64,000 nt of DNA from an uncultured bacterium. GTDB taxonomy: Bacteria; Acidobacteriota; HRBIN11; JAKEFK01. The notes under the pieces are model-generated. The model saw nothing but the letters and a program-made list of their open reading frames with translations. It was not told the DNA's origin and made no database searches. Below are positions 20,600-37,533 of this stretch, piece by piece; positions within the stretch are counted from its first letter, which is position 1, and every line of letters starts with the position of its first letter. The position numbers and the translations under genes were made by a program. The DNA lies in assembly GCA_963777505.1 (NCBI GenBank), contig CAVZQN010000008.1, positions 96,001 through 160,000 on the forward strand, written 5' to 3'.

Positions 20600-22468
20600 T
20601 TATTGCACGCAAACTTCTGCAACATTCAGTGAGGTAAACCTGGATTGATATCCGAAGGTTCCCGATTGAAGATTACCGCGGGGTGGAGTTGTTATGACTG
20701 GAGTACCATCGATCGAAACAATGATATTCGTTCCATCAAACTCTACATCGACCGTGTAGAAAGTATTCGCTGCAAAATCAAAATTAGTTTTTACTTTCTG
20801 ACGGCGGACTCCATTTTCTTTTTCTACTAATACGATTTTGCCAGTGCTCGACTTAATCTGAATTTCTAACGTGTTCTTTTTGTTAACGAAATGAGTCAGG
20901 ATCCACGCTTTGGTTGTAGTCGCGCCGGTAATTGAGATGACCGAACGGAATCTGCAAGTTAAACATCCTGTAAAAGTAAAAGGCGCAGTAACAACAGCCT
21001 TTTTGCCTGTTGGAGTACCAACCAGATTTCCTCCAGTTTCAACCCAGGACGGTTTAACGACAATCCAATCAAAAATTCCATTTTCAAAATCATCCACAAA
21101 GAGCCCACTGCAACTAACTCCTGCAACAATGATTGTGTAGCCACGGCTGCCGCTGCATCCACCCGCATCTGTGGCAGTCACTGTGAATGAAAAACTTCCG
21201 CTGACTGTTGGTGTGCCTGAAATAACACCTGTTGTTGGATGCAATGAAAGTCCTTGAGGTAATGCACCGTTACTGATGCTGAAAACGATTGGCGCAATAC
21301 CACCAGCAACTGAAACGCTTTCGGAATAGGGAGTCCCGAGAGTACCGTCAGGCAATGATGAAGGTGACACTACGATGGCAAGACCAGGCGGGACAAAACG
21401 TACGGCACCAGCACCTCGGCCCGGACCATTTAAATTAACGGCATGCGCTACTGCACCTGTTGCCGTAAAAGGAGCTTCAACAAATGCAGCCATTAGATCG
21501 GTTTGAGTCGTACCGCTATTTCCTGTAAGGATTGCTAGCTGTCCGTCACTGCTGATCCCAATATCTTCAAACCCAAGTGTTCCTCCAAGTGGCGGCAATG
21601 GAATCTGCTCAAAAGTAGAAGACGATGTAAATGGTGCAGCGACTGCAAACACACGAGCGAACGTAGCTGAAACGACAAGCGCTGTATTTCCATCAGGCGT
21701 GATGTTGATTCCATCCGGCGCCACCGCTAAAGGAATTGGAAGGAATTGAGGCGTGGAAGCGGCTGAAAATGGCGCAGTAAAAATTCTGATTCCTGAAGTA
21801 GAAAGATCCGTTACAAGCAATTTATCCCCTGCAGGATTGATTGCGATCGCTCCGCTTAAATTGTTGAAGCTCACCGGAATCGTGAACGCAATGCTTGTAT
21901 AAGGCGGATCAAGAACGGAAATACCTGCGGAATGATAGACGTATGCACGACTGTTCGCATCAAACACGATCGCTTGTGTTTGATAACTTTGAACGCCTCC
22001 CGGCAGTGTCACCTGCGTAATTGTGGATGACGAATCAAATGGCGCATGAATCACATTTAAGGTGACTGAAAAACCGATTGCCAGCGCATGTGAAAGACCT
22101 GGCGCAACAGCGATCGTACCTGTTCCGTTATAATTCGGCGCGGTATTAATTGTTGAAAGCAATGATGCATTCGATACATCAACCACAAATACGCGCGAGT
22201 TATTGAAATCAGAAACTAAAGCGCGATTACAGCCGAAATAAGAAACACCGTGCGGATCAGCGTTTGCCGGTAGTCCCGTCACATTCATTTGAGTGGGATT
22301 TGGCAAAGCGCTATCCGGAGTAGGAAAAACAATTGCTAAAGATCCATCTCCAGCAGTTCCAATAATCGCTTGACCCATTGCTACCACTGGAATCAAAAAT
22401 GCAAAAAGGCTGCAAAGAACAAGTGCTTTCGAAAAAACTTTTTGTGTAAGCCTTAGAATCCTGATCAT
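20600..22468 (-). CDS. Secreted beta-propeller + putative Ig (He_PIG) + C-terminal lectin-like domain protein
   Basis: GGAGG RBS and signal peptide. Propeller-like repeats (DGINITPDG, DIGISSDG), Ig-like GALPQGLSL..GVISGTPT..FTVTATD, C-terminal DDFE..FDG..IDG beta domain. Confidence 0.75.
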   Translation of the reverse strand: MIRILRLTQKVFSKALVLCSLFAFLIPVVAMGQAIIGTAGDGSLAIVFPTPDSALPNPTQMNVTGLPANADPHGVSYFGCNRALVSDFNNSRVFVVDVSNASLLSTINTAPNYNGTGTIAVAPGLSHALAIGFSVTLNVIHAPFDSSSTITQVTLPGGVQSYQTQAIVFDANSRAYVYHSAGISVLDPPYTSIAFTIPVSFNNLSGAIAINPAGDKLLVTDLSTSGIRIFTAPFSAASTPQFLPIPLAVAPDGINITPDGNTALVVSATFARVFAVAAPFTSSSTFEQIPLPPLGGTLGFEDIGISSDGQLAILTGNSGTTQTDLMAAFVEAPFTATGAVAHAVNLNGPGRGAGAVRFVPPGLAIVVSPSSLPDGTLGTPYSESVSVAGGIAPIVFSISNGALPQGLSLHPTTGVISGTPTVSGSFSFTVTATDAGGCSGSRGYTIIVAGVSCSGLFVDDFENGIFDWIVVKPSWVETGGNLVGTPTGKKAVVTAPFTFTGCLTCRFRSVISITGATTTKAWILTHFVNKKNTLEIQIKSSTGKIVLVEKENGVRRQKVKTNFDFAANTFYTVDVEFDGTNIIVSIDGTPVITTPPRGNLQSGTFGYQSRFTSLNVAEVCVQ

Positions 22469-22590
22469 ACTTCCTCCTATTTTCAAATCGCAGTCGAAAA
22501 GAAAAGTGCGCAACGAATTATTGCGTTGTCTGCCGGGTTGAAGAACTGCCAATCGGTATGAAAGACGCCATAACTTTCGACAGGTCTCGC

Positions 22591-22619
22591 TTGATCTTCG
22601 CTTTTTCTTCGCCTATGAT
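22591..22619 (+). promoter_or_regulatory. Sigma70 promoter of dnaE2 with a direct-repeat operator in the spacer
   Basis: TTGATC-17 nt-TATGAT. CTTCGC-N5-CTTCGC (CTTC-N7-CTTC) at 22596-22612. Confidence 0.7.
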
Positions 22620-22667
22620 GTCAGTCGGAGGAACCGGCGAGGTAGAGTCTTTTTTCTACAGCCCCGT

Positions 22668-25600
22668 GTGGAAGAGTTGTATACGCATCTTCATATACAC
22701 AGCGCATTTTCTTTGCTTGAAGGGGCATTCAGCATCCCACAATTGTTGTTTCGCGCCCAGGAAATGCAAATGCCTGTGGTTACTCTTACAGATACAAACG
22801 GATTGTATGGTGCTATCACCTTTTATAAATTCGCAAAACAACTTGGGATCAAACCGATTATCGGTTGTTGTTTGAAATCGGAAGATGGCTCCGCAGTTTT
22901 AATCGCAAAAAATATATTAGGCTTCTGTCAGATTTCGCAGATTGTAACAGCCCGCCACCTGGTTGAAAAATTTTCGCTTCGCAAAGATCTCCAAAAACTC
23001 GCCTATACTTCCGATCCACAGATATTTGTAATTTCATCCGATGAAACTTTGCTTCAAGCTCTGGCGGCTAATTGTTGGGATTTATCTCACTTATTTGTTG
23101 AGCTTGTTCGGGCGAACGGTAAGGCTGAAGAAAAAAAACTCCGTAGATTGTGCGACCTTGCCAGTCACTTACGGATCGGCGTTGTGGCAACAAATGATGT
23201 TCATTTTTTGCATCCACCAGACCATTTACTTCATCGCATTCTGACTGCAGTTGGCAATTTATCTCACTGGATGGACTCTTCTCTACCCATCACAACGGAA
23301 GAATGCTGGCTTAAAACACCGGATCAAATGGAATCACTGTTTTCGGATTTGCCTGAAGCTCTGCAAAATACAGTTCTAATTGCAGAACAGTGTGATCTGA
23401 ATCTTGAACTCGGCAAATATACATTCCCTGAATTTCATCCACCCGATGGAAAACCTTCATCGGAATTTTTTGAAACGTTATGCCGCAATGGATTGCGTGC
23501 ACGTTACAACAAAATTCCAGCTGAAGCAGAAGATCGTTTGCGCCGTGAATTGGAAGTTGTTCGAAGACTTGGATTCGCAGAATATTTTCTGGTTGTCTGG
23601 GACATTTTGCGATATGCGCGTGAGCAAAATATCCATTGGGTCGGACGCGGCTCCGCAGCAAACAGCATTGTTTCCTATGCGCTTGGAATTACAAATGTAG
23701 ATCCGGTTCGATACAACCTGTTTTTCGAACGTTTCTTAAATCCTGAACGTAAATCTCCGCCTGATATTGATGTGGACTTCGGCTGGAAAGAACGCGATCA
23801 AATCCTGGCTTACGTTTATGAACGTTATGGGCATGATCGCGTCGCGATGATCTGTACATATGTTACGTTCAGCGCTCGCCTTGCGGTGCGTGAAATCGGT
23901 AAAGCGATGGGGTTACCTGATGAGGAAATTACAGCAGTATCTTCCAGGCTTCCTTATGGCGCCGACGCAAAAGCGTTGCTTCAAGATCCTTCGCAATTTC
24001 CAGAAGCCCGCGATTTGCCATTGGATCAAGAACCATTTCGGCAAATTCTCCGGCTTGCCGCACACATCGATGGATTTCCGCGGCATCTTTCAATTCATGC
24101 GGGAGGTATTGTTATTGCGCCTTATCCAATTACTCAAATGGTTCCGCTTCAACGGGCAGCCAAAGGATTAGTGGTCACTCAATATGACATGTACGGAGTG
24201 GAAGATATCGGATTGGTGAAAATTGATTTGCTGGCACAACGGTCACTGTCAGTGTTCGATGATGTAATAAAAATTCTGAAATCCAGAAATGGTTCTTCAG
24301 GTGCCTTAATTCAGAACCTTTACGATTATGACTTTCTGGAAAACGATTGCAGAGTCAAAGAATTAGTGCGGACCGGAAACACAATTGGTTGTTTCTACAT
24401 CGAATCACCTGCAATGAGACAGCTTTTGCAAAAATTGCGAGTTGATAATTTCGAAGATCTGACTGCGGCAAGTTCGGTGATCCGCCCTGGAGTCGCAGAA
24501 AGCGGAATGATGCAGCAATACATCCGCAGAAAAACTGGAGAAGAGCCTGTCTCATATCTTCATCCGAAAATGGAATCACTGTTGAGCGAAACCTGCGGAG
24601 TCATGATCTACCAGGAAGATGTAATTCGAGTCGCTCATGAGATTGCAGGAATGAGTCTGGGTGAAGCTGATTTATTAAGACGGGCAATGAGTGGGAAAGA
24701 ACGTTCACCGATAAAAATGGATGAGATGGAACGTCAGTTTTTGGAAAAAGCAACTGCGAAAAAAGTTGATCCTGATATTGCAAAAGAAATCTGGCGGCAA
24801 ATTTCGAGCTTCGCAGCCTATGCATTTTGCAAAGCTCATAGCGCATCGTTTGCACAACTTTCGCTTCAGGTCACATATTTACGCGCATATTATCCAGCCG
24901 ATTTCATGGCAGCCGTACTTACAAATCAAGGCGGCTTCTATACAACGATGTCTTATATCGAAGAATCACGACGCATGGGATTGCGAATTCTTCCTCCTGA
25001 CGTGCAAAAAGGTGAATTCTTTTACACAGCTGAAGGACCGCATGCGATTCGGGTTGGACTCATGCAAGTAAAAGATGTAGCAGCGAAACACTGGGAAGCA
25101 TTTCATGAAGAACGCGCAAAGGAACAATTCGAAAACTTTACAGATTTTCTGCTGCGTACACAATTTAATGAAGCCGAGCTGGAAAATCTAATTAAGTGCG
25201 GCGCATGCGATTCGTTTGCATTGAACAGGCCGCAAATGTTGTGGGTCCTGAAGGCCACATTTTCTTCCATCGTTCAACAGCGAAATCGTTCAAGTCTTAT
25301 CGGAGCTTCAATCATTCGTACTCCGAATGCGCCAAGATTGCGGGACTATACTGACGATCAAAAACTCAGGTGGGAGCTTCAATTGCTCGATGTGGGCGTA
25401 ACAAAACATCCATTACATTTGTTTAAACCATGGAAGCAAGTACGGAATTTTGTACCAGCAAAACATTTGAAAGATTATAAAGATGAATATGTTCAGCTGA
25501 TCGGATGGCTTGTCACAACAAAACCATCCAGCACACGCAAGAATGAACGGATGCTATTTGCAACGTTTGAAGATACTGAAACTTTATTCGAAACCACTCT

Positions 25601-25721
25601 GTTCCCACGCACCTACAACAAATGCGCCCACCTGTTGGTAAACAGAGGACCGTATCTGGTACAAGGAAATGTGAATGAAGACCACGGCGTATTCAGCCTG
25701 AATGTTGAGGAGTACGACTGA
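22668..25721 (+). CDS. dnaE2: DNA polymerase III alpha subunit, error-prone DnaE2 type
   Basis: PHP domain (HLHIHSAFSLLEG, ATNDVH), GRGSAANS, PDIDVD, FPRHLSIHAGG, KIDLL, FCKAHSASF, short OB-fold end. About 1017 aa. The last codons may be shifted. Confidence 0.88.
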   Translation: MEELYTHLHIHSAFSLLEGAFSIPQLLFRAQEMQMPVVTLTDTNGLYGAITFYKFAKQLGIKPIIGCCLKSEDGSAVLIAKNILGFCQISQIVTARHLVEKFSLRKDLQKLAYTSDPQIFVISSDETLLQALAANCWDLSHLFVELVRANGKAEEKKLRRLCDLASHLRIGVVATNDVHFLHPPDHLLHRILTAVGNLSHWMDSSLPITTEECWLKTPDQMESLFSDLPEALQNTVLIAEQCDLNLELGKYTFPEFHPPDGKPSSEFFETLCRNGLRARYNKIPAEAEDRLRRELEVVRRLGFAEYFLVVWDILRYAREQNIHWVGRGSAANSIVSYALGITNVDPVRYNLFFERFLNPERKSPPDIDVDFGWKERDQILAYVYERYGHDRVAMICTYVTFSARLAVREIGKAMGLPDEEITAVSSRLPYGADAKALLQDPSQFPEARDLPLDQEPFRQILRLAAHIDGFPRHLSIHAGGIVIAPYPITQMVPLQRAAKGLVVTQYDMYGVEDIGLVKIDLLAQRSLSVFDDVIKILKSRNGSSGALIQNLYDYDFLENDCRVKELVRTGNTIGCFYIESPAMRQLLQKLRVDNFEDLTAASSVIRPGVAESGMMQQYIRRKTGEEPVSYLHPKMESLLSETCGVMIYQEDVIRVAHEIAGMSLGEADLLRRAMSGKERSPIKMDEMERQFLEKATAKKVDPDIAKEIWRQISSFAAYAFCKAHSASFAQLSLQVTYLRAYYPADFMAAVLTNQGGFYTTMSYIEESRRMGLRILPPDVQKGEFFYTAEGPHAIRVGLMQVKDVAAKHWEAFHEERAKEQFENFTDFLLRTQFNEAELENLIKCGACDSFALNRPQMLWVLKATFSSIVQQRNRSSLIGASIIRTPNAPRLRDYTDDQKLRWELQLLDVGVTKHPLHLFKPWKQVRNFVPAKHLKDYKDEYVQLIGWLVTTKPSSTRKNERMLFATFEDTETLFETTLFPRTYNKCAHLLVNRGPYLVQGNVNEDHGVFSLNVEEYD

Positions 25722-25724
25722 ATC

Positions 25725-26185
25725 TGAACGATCAAAGAGGAAACAGAAAGTGAAATCAAAAGCTCACAGAACGAAGGATTAGATCTTAGAAAAAGAACAA
25801 AGGATTTTGCGTTAAGAATCATCCGCCTATACAAAGCACTTCCCAAGACAAATGAAGCTCGAATTTTGGGCTATCAGGTGCTCAGAAGCGGAACTTCCAT
25901 TGGCGCCAACTTTCGAGAAGGGGTTCGAGCGCGTTCCTCAGCAGAATTTGTGAGCAAGATGGAAACTGCATTGCAGGAGTTGGAAGAAACAATGTATTGG
26001 TTAGAGTTATTGCAAGAAATTGGTGCTATTCAAGCATATCGATTGGAAAAACTCATAAAAGAAGCAGATGAACTAACAGCTATTCTTGTAACTTCCGTAA
26101 AAACAGTAAAACGCCGCCACTTGAACGTCAAATAGATCTGTCTTCAAAAGATCCTTTCCTCTTTCATCGTTCATCTTTCATCGTT
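25725..26185. mobile_element. IVS-like cassette: four-helix-bundle gene between inverted heptamer-repeat arms
   Basis: TGAACGATCAAAGAGGAAA (25725-25743) pairs 18/19 with TTTCCTCTTTCATCGTTCA (26155-26173). The right arm continues as TTTCATC/GTTCATC heptamers. Confidence 0.55.
25750..26135 (+). CDS. Four-helix-bundle protein (23S rRNA intervening-sequence protein / S23 family)
   Basis: DLRKRTKDFALRIIRLYKALP..QVLRSGTSIGANFREG..ARSSAEF..ELEETMYWLELL..EADELTAIL. The GTG at 25750 has an RBS but is out of frame by one base. Confidence 0.85.
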
Positions 26186-26189
26186 AAAC

Positions 26190-26218
26190 AAAAAAGCCCT
26201 GGAATGAACCAGGGCTTT
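26190..26218 (-). terminator. Rho-independent terminator
   Basis: AAAGCCCTGG-N6-CCAGGGCTTT with a U-tract on the minus strand. Confidence 0.85.
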
Positions 26219-26290
26219 AAAAGTTTCCCAGCATCTCCATGAGCCACAGGCTAAATAAGGAGGAACCGGCAGCTCAAAAGGAGTAAATAT

Positions 26291-26350
26291 CTATTTCTTC
26301 TTTGCCGGTGATTTTTTCTTGGCTGCCTTTTTTCCTTTCTTTTTTGCCAT
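26291..26350 (-). CDS. 19-aa lysine-rich peptide MAKKKGKKAAKKKSPAKKK
   Basis: AAAGGAGG RBS 6 nt before the ATG, TAG stop, own terminator downstream. Too short for the ORF track. Confidence 0.75.
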   Translation of the reverse strand: MAKKKGKKAAKKKSPAKKK

Positions 26351-26449
26351 TCATTTCCTCCTTTGGCTTTTCCCTGATCCACAAAAGATCGGGAAAGTTA
26401 AAATTAGTTACACTATATATAGTATAAAAGGGTGACTCAGGTCAATACT

Positions 26450-27175
26450 GTGAATGAAGAAAAATATTCGGTTGATAGTATTTGGGATCCAACGATCAAA
26501 ATTCAGCAATCGCGAAAAGGGTATCGTTTCGCGATTGATTCAGTTTTGCTTGCGCATTTTCTTCGATTAAATTCTGATGAAGAAGCGTTAGAAATCGGTT
26601 GTGGAAACGGAATTATTCTTGTTCTGCTTTCGCATTTGCAGAAATATAAACGACTGATTGGTGTGGAAATTCAAAATGAATTAGCCGAGCTTGCCCGCTT
26701 GAATATAAAAAACAATCACGCGGAAAAAGTGGAAATTATCGAGGCTGATGCTCTTGAACTTTCAGAAAGACTTCAGAAGAATTCATTCCATCTACTTTAT
26801 TCAAACCCTCCCTATCGAAAAGTCGGAACAGGCAGACTCAATCCATCAACAGAAAAAGCCCTCGCGCGTCATGAAGTGCGATTCAAGCTAAAAGATCTAC
26901 TGAATCTTGCGGAAGAATTTCTAATCGATCGCGGCCGGCTTAGTGTAATTCTTCCTTCGTTTCGTGAAGAAGATTGGATGAAGTTACTGGGAGCGACTCA
27001 ATATTTCGTTCAAACCCGGCAATATGTATATTCATTTCCCAATGCTCCGCCTGCCTTTATTTTGCTAACTGTTGCCAAACACGAATCGACAATCGACGAA
27101 AAGCACCCACTAACAATCTATACACAACCTGGAAAATACACACACGAAATGGCTGCATTGCTCACAAAGCAGTAA
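26450..27175 (+). CDS. tRNA1(Val) A37-N6 methyltransferase (YfiC/TrmN6-like)
   Basis: GYRFAIDSVLLA, EIGCGNG, GVEIQ, SNPPY, ARHE. Confidence 0.85.
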   Translation: MNEEKYSVDSIWDPTIKIQQSRKGYRFAIDSVLLAHFLRLNSDEEALEIGCGNGIILVLLSHLQKYKRLIGVEIQNELAELARLNIKNNHAEKVEIIEADALELSERLQKNSFHLLYSNPPYRKVGTGRLNPSTEKALARHEVRFKLKDLLNLAEEFLIDRGRLSVILPSFREEDWMKLLGATQYFVQTRQYVYSFPNAPPAFILLTVAKHESTIDEKHPLTIYTQPGKYTHEMAALLTKQ

Positions 27176-35436: not shown

Positions 35437-37533
35437 ATGTCAAATACTTTTTCCACAACTCTATCTCTACTCTTTTCACTATGTGTGCTATTGATGACGC
35501 CTTCAGTAAGCCGAACACAGCAACAGGATGACTCGCAATTTCAAGAATCATTAAAAGCTGTCGTGTCGAAACTCGGAAATGAGCTCAGCGAAGGAAAAAA
35601 TCAGGATCAAAAGAAACGCATCGAACGAGGGCTGTCACAAGCATCACAATTCTGGCGATCTGAAGATGGCGACGCAAAAACATTTGAAGCTTTTGCCCGG
35701 AAAAATATGATCGTGGATCAGGCAGTGCTTGACGAAACATTTAAACGCCTGGAGTTTATTTTCGAGCAGGTGGGCGGACATATGAATGAGATCAGGCGTA
35801 ATTTGCGTCAGCAAACGGATTTGGATCTAGGCCCTGTATTGCCGATCGATGAAATTCTTGGCGCTTATGATCCCTCAGCGAACTTAAATGATGACTTGTT
35901 CAAAAATAAACTTGCGTTTCTTGTACTTCTCAATTTTCCCTCAACATCTTTGGAGGAGCGCCTGAACGCTAAAGATTGGACTCGCCGTCAATGGGCTGAA
36001 GTGAGACTGGCGCAAGCTTTTTCGCGAAGAGTGCCAGGTGATGCAAACCTGCAGCTAACAAAAGCTCTTAGCGACGCAGATCAATATATTTCAGAGTACA
36101 ACATCTGGATGCATCATCTTCTGGACGAAGGCGGTCAACGATTATTCCCTTCCGGAATGCGGTTAATTACTCACTGGAATTTGCGCGATGAGCTCAAGGC
36201 TGATTACACCGATCCAAAAGGCTTTCCAAAACAAAAAATGATCGCCAAAGTGATGGAACGAATTATCACGCAGACGATCCCGGCTGTTGTCATTAACAAT
36301 CCTCATGTTGACTGGAATCCATTCACGAATGAAGTCAAAGCCTCAAGTGTAAATGATTCAGGAAAGGCTGACGCGCCGAAAGATTTGACGATTACAACCG
36401 AAGCAGAACCTGATACACGTTACAAGCATTTGTTAAACATTTTTCAAGCGAATCGGAGCATCGATCGTTACTCACCCACTCAACCTACTTTGATCGACCG
36501 AAGATTTAACGAAAACCGGGAGATTCCTGAAGAGCGCGTGAGAGAGATGTTTCAACAGATCTTAACATCGCCCCTGATTCCAAAGACGGCGGAAGTGATC
36601 AAAAAACGATTAGGACGTGAGCTGCAACCTTTTGATATCTGGTATAGCGGATTCAAAGCGAGAGGCAAATATACAGAACAAGAACTCGATGCCATTGTTT
36701 CAAAAAAATATCCGACGGCTGAAGCCTATGCTGCCGATATTCCAAATCTCTTACAAAAGCTTGGCTTTCAACCCGAGATCTCAAAATATCTCGCCGATCG
36801 GATTGTGGTCGATCCATCGCGAGGAGCAGGACACGCGATGGGAGCCGCCCGCCGTGAAGATAAAGCTCATCTGCGAACGCGTGTTGAAAAAACCGGAATG
36901 AACTACAAAGGTTACAACATTGCCATTCATGAAATGGGACATAACGTTGAACAAATTATTTCTCTGAACAAAATTGACCACACATTACTTCAGGGTGTTC
37001 CAAACATTGCATTTACTGAAGCACTGGCATTTGTATTTCAGGCACGCGATCTGGAACTTCTTGGACTTTCAAAACCAGATGAAGAATCAAAAGCGCAGCA
37101 AACACTTGCAGCATTCTGGACTGCGTATGAAATGGCGGGAGTTTCTCTTGTCGATATGAACGTTTGGAAATGGATGTACGATCATCCTGAAGCCACACCA
37201 GCTCAACTTAAAGAAGCAACTCTTCAAATTTCCAAAGATATCTGGAATAAATACTATGCTCCTTTGTTTGGACAAAAAGATGTAGTTCTACTTGGAATCT
37301 ACTCACATATGATTGATGCCATGCTTTATCTTCCTGATTATCCGATCGGGCAAATGATAGCTGTGCAAGTGGAAGAAAAAATTACTCAATCCGGCAATCT
37401 TGGAGCAGAGTTTGAGCGTATTTGCCTCACGGGAGCTGTCGTTCCTGATTTGTGGATGAAAGTTGCGACCGGTACACCTGTTGGACCCGAAGCTTTACTG
37501 CGTCAGGCTGAGAAAGCGTTGAGCAGTCTTTAA
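35437..37533 (+). CDS. Secreted zincin metallopeptidase-like protein (M3-like)
   Basis: Signal peptide, HEMGH with downstream FTEA, YSH..LYL.DY. Confidence 0.65.
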   Translation: MSNTFSTTLSLLFSLCVLLMTPSVSRTQQQDDSQFQESLKAVVSKLGNELSEGKNQDQKKRIERGLSQASQFWRSEDGDAKTFEAFARKNMIVDQAVLDETFKRLEFIFEQVGGHMNEIRRNLRQQTDLDLGPVLPIDEILGAYDPSANLNDDLFKNKLAFLVLLNFPSTSLEERLNAKDWTRRQWAEVRLAQAFSRRVPGDANLQLTKALSDADQYISEYNIWMHHLLDEGGQRLFPSGMRLITHWNLRDELKADYTDPKGFPKQKMIAKVMERIITQTIPAVVINNPHVDWNPFTNEVKASSVNDSGKADAPKDLTITTEAEPDTRYKHLLNIFQANRSIDRYSPTQPTLIDRRFNENREIPEERVREMFQQILTSPLIPKTAEVIKKRLGRELQPFDIWYSGFKARGKYTEQELDAIVSKKYPTAEAYAADIPNLLQKLGFQPEISKYLADRIVVDPSRGAGHAMGAARREDKAHLRTRVEKTGMNYKGYNIAIHEMGHNVEQIISLNKIDHTLLQGVPNIAFTEALAFVFQARDLELLGLSKPDEESKAQQTLAAFWTAYEMAGVSLVDMNVWKWMYDHPEATPAQLKEATLQISKDIWNKYYAPLFGQKDVVLLGIYSHMIDAMLYLPDYPIGQMIAVQVEEKITQSGNLGAEFERICLTGAVVPDLWMKVATGTPVGPEALLRQAEKALSSL

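Follow-up and report, generated by a model that had tools for sequence, protein, structure and literature searches.

A small RNA gene that may throttle mutagenic repair from beside a dnaE2-like polymerase gene

Why should the same 12 nucleotides (nt) stand at the predicted 5' end of a DNA polymerase messenger and again, 3.6 kb further on, inside a small transcription unit that converges on the polymerase gene? The question is raised by a 64,000-nt stretch of DNA from an uncultured member of the Acidobacteriota (GTDB lineage HRBIN11; JAKEFK01; assembly GCA_963777505.1, contig CAVZQN010000008.1, positions 96,001 to 160,000), here called the window and numbered from its first letter. The plus strand carries a gene for a dnaE2-like C-family DNA polymerase and the minus strand a unit of about 220 nt. 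The 12-mer GGAGGAACCGGC occurs on the plus strand at 22627-22638 (site 1) and at 26259-26270 (site 2), exact copies at both places as an earlier note on this DNA had reported, and the small unit is read across site 2 from the opposite strand. The explanation favoured here, with a probability of roughly 0.45, is that a locus-linked small RNA (sRNA) pairs with a relic Shine-Dalgarno (SD) sequence, acting as a ribosome standby site, at the very 5' terminus of a dnaE2-like mRNA under LexA control and so damps its translation. Judged from sequence, an RNA gene may thus throttle mutagenic repair.

Positions refer to the window within the organism's own genome (G000; 5.23 Mb, 95.9% complete). The genome set holds 13 genomes of the class, seven of which, G000 included, belong to the family; the sister species G001 is the only other species of the genus in the set. 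A third lineage of the genus (85% amino-acid identity) is represented by the metagenome contig L042, from which the 5' end of the polymerase gene is missing and which was the sole one from the genus among the 24 loci of a metagenome scan. A scan of genome contigs found no new species of the genus. Contigs of four runs contain relatives 90-95% alike across both sites, with indels at the left edge of site 1 in two of the four (two bases missing at 22620; an extra T after 22626); for substitutions in these contigs, the comparison covered 40 of 343 entries. A look for RNA datasets containing 22400-26500 found none.

The conservation of the two sites adds weight to the favoured reading. Both 12-mers are exact in the sister species, which is the co-conservation that the earlier note had asked to be checked: site 1 at L014 2630-2641 and site 2 at L009 1576-1587, the latter being exact in L042 as well. 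The whole small unit is present in G001 and L042 with GGAGGAACCGGCAGCTC unchanged, and is 78-85% identical across the three lineages. Between the polymerase genes of G000 and G001, 838 of 1015 amino acids are identical and four-fold degenerate sites agree at 134 of 345 positions (39%). Neutral sites are therefore saturated, and both 12-mers and the small unit are kept by selection; survival of a 12-13-nt non-coding block by drift has a probability of about 1e-5. By this comparison site 1 and site 2 are each functional, conserved elements. No other genus among the 13 class genomes combines the leader 12-mer with the small unit.

The 5' end of the polymerase messenger

The features on the mRNA side, with the other two copies of the promoter, are these:

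22591-22619, plus strand: SOS-type promoter of the dnaE2-like gene (9 of 12 positions matched in the promoter scan; block conservation)
22626-22638, plus strand: conserved 13-nt island CGGAGGAACCGGC, predicted mRNA 5' end, holding the 12-mer (identity with G001)
22639-22667, plus strand: rest of the leader, no SD near the start, predicted structure over the GUG (sequence, fold)
22668-25721, plus strand: dnaE2-like C-family DNA polymerase, 1017 amino acids (aa) (Pfam, NCBIfam)
Contig C6, about 333100-333140 (L112), and contig C2, about 35700-35735 (L113): further copies of the promoter/operator at 22591-22619

The promoter is sigma-70-like, TTGATC-17-TATGAT (-35 at 22591-22596, -10 at 22614-22619), and its spacer contains the direct repeat TTCGC-N6-TTCGC (22597-22612). 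The 29-nt block is identical in G001 and near-identical, direct repeat included, 5' of all eight orthologues (8/8). The combination of TTGAT(C/T)...TATG(A/C)T with this repeat has exactly three copies in G000, the other two lying 5' of lexA-dinB, with lexA on contig C6, and 5' of a leaderless 125-aa open reading frame (ORF) that resembles a C-terminal piece of B12-dependent ribonucleotide reductase. LexA scores 202.6 bits (cut-off 111) and the dinB/Pol IV gene downstream of lexA 330 bits (cut-off 256). The direct repeat is a probable LexA operator, and LexA control of the dnaE2-like gene is predicted from the promoter that it has in common with lexA-dinB; the SOS-like promoter of the earlier note is borne out to this extent. 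The operator is kept 5' of the dnaE2 orthologues throughout the family, with a modified form in two more genera.

The island CGGAGGAACCGGC starts 6-7 nt past the -10 and is identical in G001, the only one of the eight orthologues in which the sequence after the -10 is kept. Between the two species its flanks do not align, neither the 5-6 nt in front of it nor anything behind it, and its edges coincide with those of the complementarity to the small RNA. Since the ATG of the leaderless 125-aa ORF is the seventh base after its -10, the polymerase transcript is expected by analogy to start at 22626 or 22627. Site 1 is then the predicted 5' end of the dnaE2-like mRNA, and the promoter position agrees with where the earlier note had placed that end.

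Site 1 holds the sole GGAGG of the leader. It lies 36 nt 5' of the first in-frame start, GTG 22668 (86 nt in G001), and no SD-like sequence is found near the GUG start in either leader. The GUG is predicted to be paired, its probability of being unpaired being 0.04 in G000 and 0.01 in G001; the corresponding values for the leader GGAGG are 0.69 and 0.43. Because it stands 36 or 86 nt from a structured start that lacks an SD, the leader GGAGG is, as far as its sequence setting tells, not a normal ribosome binding site (RBS). The earlier note's proposal that the small RNA blocks the RBS therefore does not hold: nothing SD-like lies nearer to the GUG. A split SD, in which a leader hairpin would bring the GGAGG beside the GUG, was considered and dropped, as the minimum free energy (MFE) folds of the two leaders have no such helix in common.

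Of the six examples examined from other genera, five have their start codon 11-22 nt past the -10, and G006 has it about 80 nt past. In genus g3 a CGGAG stands about 10 nt before the ATG, at the same distance from the -10 as the leader GGAGG. The ancestral ATG position is UUG in G000 and GUG in G001, with a conserved GUG three codons upstream. Between GGAGG and start there is an insertion of about 30 nt in G000 and of about 80 nt, with a GC-rich hairpin, in G001, whose leader is some 50 nt longer. Given the short or absent leaders of other genera and the structured leader inserted here, the GGAGG looks like a relic SD. Other genera are, as a side observation, mostly leaderless or have very short leaders, and a leader of 30-80 nt was gained in the genus of G000 and G001. 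Intergenic regions of the relatives also contain REP-like GC-rich hairpin repeats (L014 2665-2700, L009 2490-2560, L042 1140-1170), the first of which lies within the dnaE2 leader of G001.

The convergent small unit

The earlier note had described an RBS, a 19-aa ORF, a hairpin at 26235-26283 and a terminator on the minus strand, with the anti-SD part in the hairpin loop. All of these elements are present, and the place of the anti-SD part in the loop is confirmed by the MFE fold and by RNAalifold. In the direction of transcription the unit reads:

26445-26416, minus strand: putative promoter TTGACC-18-TATATA (read by eye; spacing identical in 3/3 sequences)
26393-26372, minus strand: hairpin CCCGAUC-UUUUGUG-GAUCAGGG in the 5' untranslated region (UTR) (RNAalifold)
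26361-26357, minus strand: SD GGAGG of the small ORF, 6 nt before its ATG (sequence; kept 3/3)
26350-26291, minus strand: small ORF MAKKKGKKAAKKKSPAKKK, 19 aa, ATG at 26350 and stop at 26293-26291 (ATG and TAG kept 3/3)
26283-26235, minus strand: conserved 3'-UTR hairpin, outer CUCC/GGAG (MFE fold, RNAalifold)
26275-26264, minus strand: 5' arm of this hairpin, GAGCUGCCGGUU
26263-26253, minus strand: its loop, CCUCCUUAUUU
26252-26241, minus strand: its 3' arm, AGCCUGUGGCUC
26270-26259, minus strand: RNA GCCGGUUCCUCC, complementary to the mRNA 5' end (exact in G001 and L042)
26218-26193, minus strand: intrinsic terminator (terminator scan; 10 pairs, then a U tract)

With its own putative promoter and terminator the small unit is independent and, on its sequence conservation, a real and selected gene. 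The 5'-UTR hairpin has nine pairs, one of which is changed on both sides (U-A in two sequences, C-G in one). The loop of the 3'-UTR hairpin begins with CCUCC and varies beyond that. The 5' arm and the CCUCC are together invariant at 17 of 17 positions in the three sequences, whereas the 3' arm varies at three of its 12, two of these changes keeping a standard pair (U-G to U-A, G-U to G-C) and the third falling where none of the three sequences has a matched pair. As it is the arm complementary to the mRNA that is invariant and the opposite arm that has varied, the constraint acts on the sequence and goes beyond structure. A hairpin of different sequence occupies the place of the terminator in G001 and L042.

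The small ORF has some marks of translation, namely the distance of its SD (about 4-6 nt), its kept ATG and TAG, and the 15-nt in-frame indel that accounts for its length of 14 aa in G001 and L042. An upstream overlapping ATG is lost in L042, where it reads ACG. The predicted peptide is polycationic, with 11 Lys among its 19 residues, no hydrophobic stretch and a composition of almost pure Lys/Ala. The A-rich sequence could equally be a tract for binding Hfq or the ribosome; Hfq is encoded in G000 (88.7 bits). No paralogue of the micro-ORF was found: five small basic ORFs led by an SD occur in G000, and the other four are unlike it. The heptamer A AAA AAG, known from dnaX as a classic -1 slippery site, occurs twice in frame, and the -1 frame stays open over 26 codons in G000 and further in G001; these heptamers are probably a by-product of the Lys codons.

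The unit appears confined to the genus. BLAST searches in 41 genomes matched only G001, apart from a 36-nt A-rich match in G019. A covariance model built on the three sequences gave strong matches in G000 and G001 only among the 13 class genomes, five weak matches (E 0.004-0.68) covering just a common GATC mini-hairpin or A-rich tracts. No Rfam family reached its gathering score. The best, ncS54 (RF02871, Burkholderia sRNA 54), gave 27.8 bits against 43; two hairpins and the terminator align, the identity falls mostly in the terminator, and the small unit is not a member. At the upstream edge of the unit, the proposed -35 (26440-26445) lies just upstream of GTG 26450, the position with which the start of a TrmN-like methyltransferase ORF kept in G001 and L042 aligns; that ORF was listed from GTG 26432.

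Predicted pairing, its mechanism and its rivals

The two RNAs are complementary over 12 nt in G000, or 13 if a G-U pair is counted, and over 15 nt in G001. For both species RNAcofold places an intermolecular duplex in the MFE structure; the net gain amounts to -9.5 kcal/mol for G000 and to -15.8 for G001, and none of 30 shuffled G001 leaders reached the latter. For the 27-nt hairpin core, no more than 18 further perfect 12-nt complements exist in 10.5 Mb (both strands). The probability that a complement falls by chance in any one leader of 100 nt is about 1e-4, and in the island it is 1e-4 to 1e-3 when the SD word is allowed for. When the 3'-UTR is folded alone, the CCUCC is predicted to be unpaired with a probability of 0.99 in G000, 0.51 in G001 and 0.90 in L042. 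The cofold MFE of G000 holds the GUG inside a helix in the bound state.

In the mechanism proposed, an RNA of about 220 nt would be made in this genus from its own promoter on the minus strand, convergent with the polymerase gene. It would be laid out as a 5' hairpin, a strong SD, a Lys-rich ORF of 14-19 codons, a 3'-UTR hairpin with CCUCC in its loop, and a terminator. Through the loop and 5' arm of that hairpin (GCCGGUUCCUCC) it would pair with the first 12 nt of the dnaE2-like mRNA (15 nt in G001), where the 5'-terminal GGAGG, an apparent relic of the ancestral SD, would now serve as a site for loading the 30S subunit (standby). Pairing would occlude this standby site and leave the mutagenic polymerase poorly translated, and the brake would hold until SOS-induced mRNA exceeds what the small RNA can titrate. 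We infer that both RNAs are transcribed, that they pair and that the sign of the effect is negative. Of the interpretation in the earlier note, the selected unit, the SOS promoter, the mRNA 5' end, the co-conservation and the loop are retained; the blocking of an RBS and the insertion that it had offered as an alternative are not.

Several points weigh against this mechanism. That each site is functional follows from conservation; that they act jointly does not. There is no covariation between them, because neither 12-mer varies across the two to three lineages compared, and a single gain in a single genus amounts to one evolutionary event. The gain in folding energy observed for G000 was reached by four of 30 shuffled G000 leaders. 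In the full-length small RNA the CCUCC is much less accessible, with a probability of being unpaired of 0.06 in G000, 0.03 in G001 and 0.61 in L042; the MFE fold of G000 pairs it with the small unit's own SD (AAGGAGGAA with UUCCUCCUU), and seven of the 12 pairing nucleotides sit in a stem that must open. With the GGAGG off SD distance, any effect on translation is likely to be indirect and could be of either sign. The SD/anti-SD word, frequent in conserved non-coding islands, accounts for five of the 12 nucleotides. The promoter scan, whose criteria were stricter, did not list TTGACC-18-TATATA of the small unit.

Nor is the repetition in itself informative, since a 12-mer repeated within 4 kb is, taken alone, at chance level. 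The 64-kb window contains 63 raw direct 12-mer pairs no more than 4 kb apart, forming 38 families, and another of them (22702/26552) falls in the same region. In 100 rounds of shuffling, no shuffled window gave two matches of this particular 12-mer. Counted genome-wide, as the earlier note had suggested, it has three forward copies and no reverse copy in the 5.23 Mb of G000, and the seven family genomes contain 3, 3, 0, 1, 4, 2 and 1 copies. The third copy in G000 lies on another contig (C7:104598-104609; L001 1501-1512) and the third in G001 within a 393-aa ORF; as these are not orthologous, the third copies are ruled out as common sRNA targets. That of G000, which is not kept in G001, falls where a 505-aa ORF ends, with the ATG of an overlapping 335-aa ORF 15 nt downstream, and would be a second perfect 12-nt complement if the sRNA exists.

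Some of these points lend themselves to the strongest competing explanation, which is quite possible: that two independent functional elements match in the 12-mer by coincidence. The leader element would then be a 5' SD-like site for ribosome loading or stabilisation, and the hairpin would belong to a small protein gene, its CCUCC acting in cis on the gene's own SD or being purely structural. The abundance of close 12-mer pairs, the 0-4 copies per family genome and the pairing of the CCUCC with its own SD in the full-length fold all suit this view, and each element could contain the SD/anti-SD word for reasons of its own; in the leader, the CGGAG of genus g3 suggests that the GGAG may simply be an inherited SD. 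Sites of the required kind are known. In the available text of PMC4113751, the STAB-SD of Bacillus thuringiensis cry3A is a 5' SD-like site that binds the 30S subunit and does not initiate at a nearby codon. Like it, the leader GGAGG is an SD-like sequence near an mRNA 5' end and off initiation distance. However, the cry3A element counters RNase J1 and has no antisense partner, and RNase J, the enzyme that is blocked in that case, was not found in the 95.9%-complete G000. Coincidence also has to supply a chance match of the 7 nt beyond GGAGG within a neighbour's island, at the 1e-4 to 1e-3 estimated above, and leaves unexplained both the leader AACCGGC, frozen amid saturated neutral sites, and the invariance of the mRNA-complementary arm alone.

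A variant of the favoured mechanism, which seems unlikely, makes the brake dependent on translation of the small RNA itself. Ribosomes on the SD of the poly-Lys micro-ORF would free the CCUCC, which would then clamp the standby SD of dnaE2. If this were true, polymerase output would be set jointly by DNA damage, acting through LexA, and by the cell's translational state, and the arrangement would be a new and recent layer of control, born in one genus together with the inserted leader.

It is rather improbable, too, that the pairing is real and works in the opposite sense, activating or stabilising the mRNA by shielding its 5' end from decay or by refolding the leader to free the GUG, or that it is the mRNA that titrates the sRNA. 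All of the evidence for pairing applies equally here. The G000 leader can form mutually exclusive UUCUAC helices, of which the one containing the GUG forms in the MFE of the 5'-bound cofold, and many SDs in the genome are partial complements of the small RNA (AAGGAGGAA occurs 73 times). That the bound G000 cofold puts the GUG in a helix nevertheless favours repression over activation.

The direct orientation of the two 12-mers on one DNA strand and their conservation would also fit two sites for one sequence-specific DNA- or RNA-binding protein. This is very improbable: no regulator gene lies beside either 12-mer, site 2 forms part of a conserved RNA hairpin encoded on the other strand, and the sole other copies in G000 and G001 stand at non-orthologous places, that of G001 inside the 393-aa ORF. 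The earlier note's own alternative, that direct repeats 3.6 kb apart flank an inserted dnaE2-IVP block as its target-site duplications or scars, has hardly any claim left and is refuted by synteny, since a polymerase with the same promoter is found in six of six other family genomes (and in two of six from the rest of the class) and is thus ancestral in the family, G002 of another genus lacks the small unit and has the same methyltransferase gene downstream, G001 and L042 keep the 12-mer without the IVP gene, and a scar would not outlast the saturation of neutral sites.

The polymerase, its neighbours and comparable systems

The product of the polymerase gene has PHP, polymerase core (III alpha), fingers, HhH and OB domains (Pfam). 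A longer dnaE on contig C3 (968 bits) makes it the second copy. It spans positions 5-1058 of the 1146-position DnaE profile, ending at the OB fold without the C-terminal part of DnaE. The NCBIfam error-prone model NF004225 gives 687.1 bits, below its cut-off of 939, and the DnaE model NF004226 gives 833.5 bits, which is higher yet also below its cut-off (1002). No imuA or imuB adjoins the gene, the upstream gene being divergent and unrelated; two genes with an IMS domain (Y-family) lie elsewhere in G000 and both score as ordinary IMS domains. With both cut-offs missed and no imuA/imuB alongside, the gene is called dnaE2-like. In having a second and shorter C-family polymerase whose promoter is of LexA type, the locus recalls the imuA-imuB-dnaE2 cassette, from which the present gene differs in standing alone and in its score with the error-prone model. 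All 13 class genomes match the polymerase. Full-length orthologues (46-83% identity) are present in eight of the 12 others, and the remaining four have a 35% match only, which is the replicative enzyme. In relatives at 42-43% identity, coding sequence runs up to the start of the gene in an operon-like arrangement. The replicative dnaE on C3 itself consists of two frames overlapping by 8 nt, with an apparent 1-nt frameshift at about 409724-409731 that is not in a homopolymer and lies near the conserved ...RLIY / EINMIKQMGF... junction; this reflects an assembly error or else a real break.

Between the polymerase gene and the small unit lies one further gene:

25734-26135, plus strand: four-helix-bundle / 23S rRNA IVP-family gene, start uncertain (PF05635 86.9 bits, TIGR02436 103.6 bits)

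It is lineage-specific, being absent at this locus in G001 and L042, and is outside the proposed mechanism. A short TCATCGT-type repeat that follows it (26154-26185) recurs at three other places in the genome, and a related metagenome contig has it extended into a longer tandem array (loose end 26186, run X3).

The closest functional parallel is the Escherichia coli pair IstR-1 and tisB. IstR-1 is encoded beside the LexA-repressed tisB, has its own promoter, binds far upstream of a structured RBS, where 30S subunits are preloaded, and sets a threshold. The pair is an SOS-linked type I toxin-antitoxin system with a ribosome standby site (PMC6690012, PMC13159721), standby being, in the available text of PMC6690012, the feeding of a structured start from a single-stranded SD-like site towards the 5' end. 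The candidate sRNA similarly adjoins a target predicted to be under LexA, has its own putative promoter, would meet its target upstream of a structured start and would act by the same threshold logic. In contrast to tisB, the target is a 1017-aa polymerase and not a small membrane toxin, and in contrast to IstR-1 the complementarity is 12-15 nt long and at the extreme 5' end, the RNA carries a Lys-rich micro-ORF, and the system is known from sequence alone. By analogy, and tentatively, the small RNA and the polymerase may work as IstR-1 and tisB do without belonging to that family; with a polycationic small ORF and a polymerase as target, the locus does not have the make-up of a toxin-antitoxin system of type I.

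SgrS/SgrT, RNAIII/hld and SR1/SR1P are dual-function sRNAs that encode a peptide and also act by base pairing. The small unit resembles them in combining an SD-led small ORF with a separate candidate base-pairing module in one transcript, and differs in that its predicted peptide has 14-19 aa, is nearly pure Lys/Ala and varies in length between species.

Polymerases of the DnaE2 type drive damage-induced mutagenesis, and their known control is transcriptional, through LexA, and by partner proteins. Titles and abstract openings of the papers that a full-text search found on dnaE2 with small RNA or post-transcriptional control describe no such case, nor does the available text of PMC10055390. 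If the pairing is real, it would provide a second case of standby-site occlusion outside toxin-antitoxin systems and would place a post-transcriptional threshold on mutagenesis, the regulatory RNA and its target site having arisen together within one genus.

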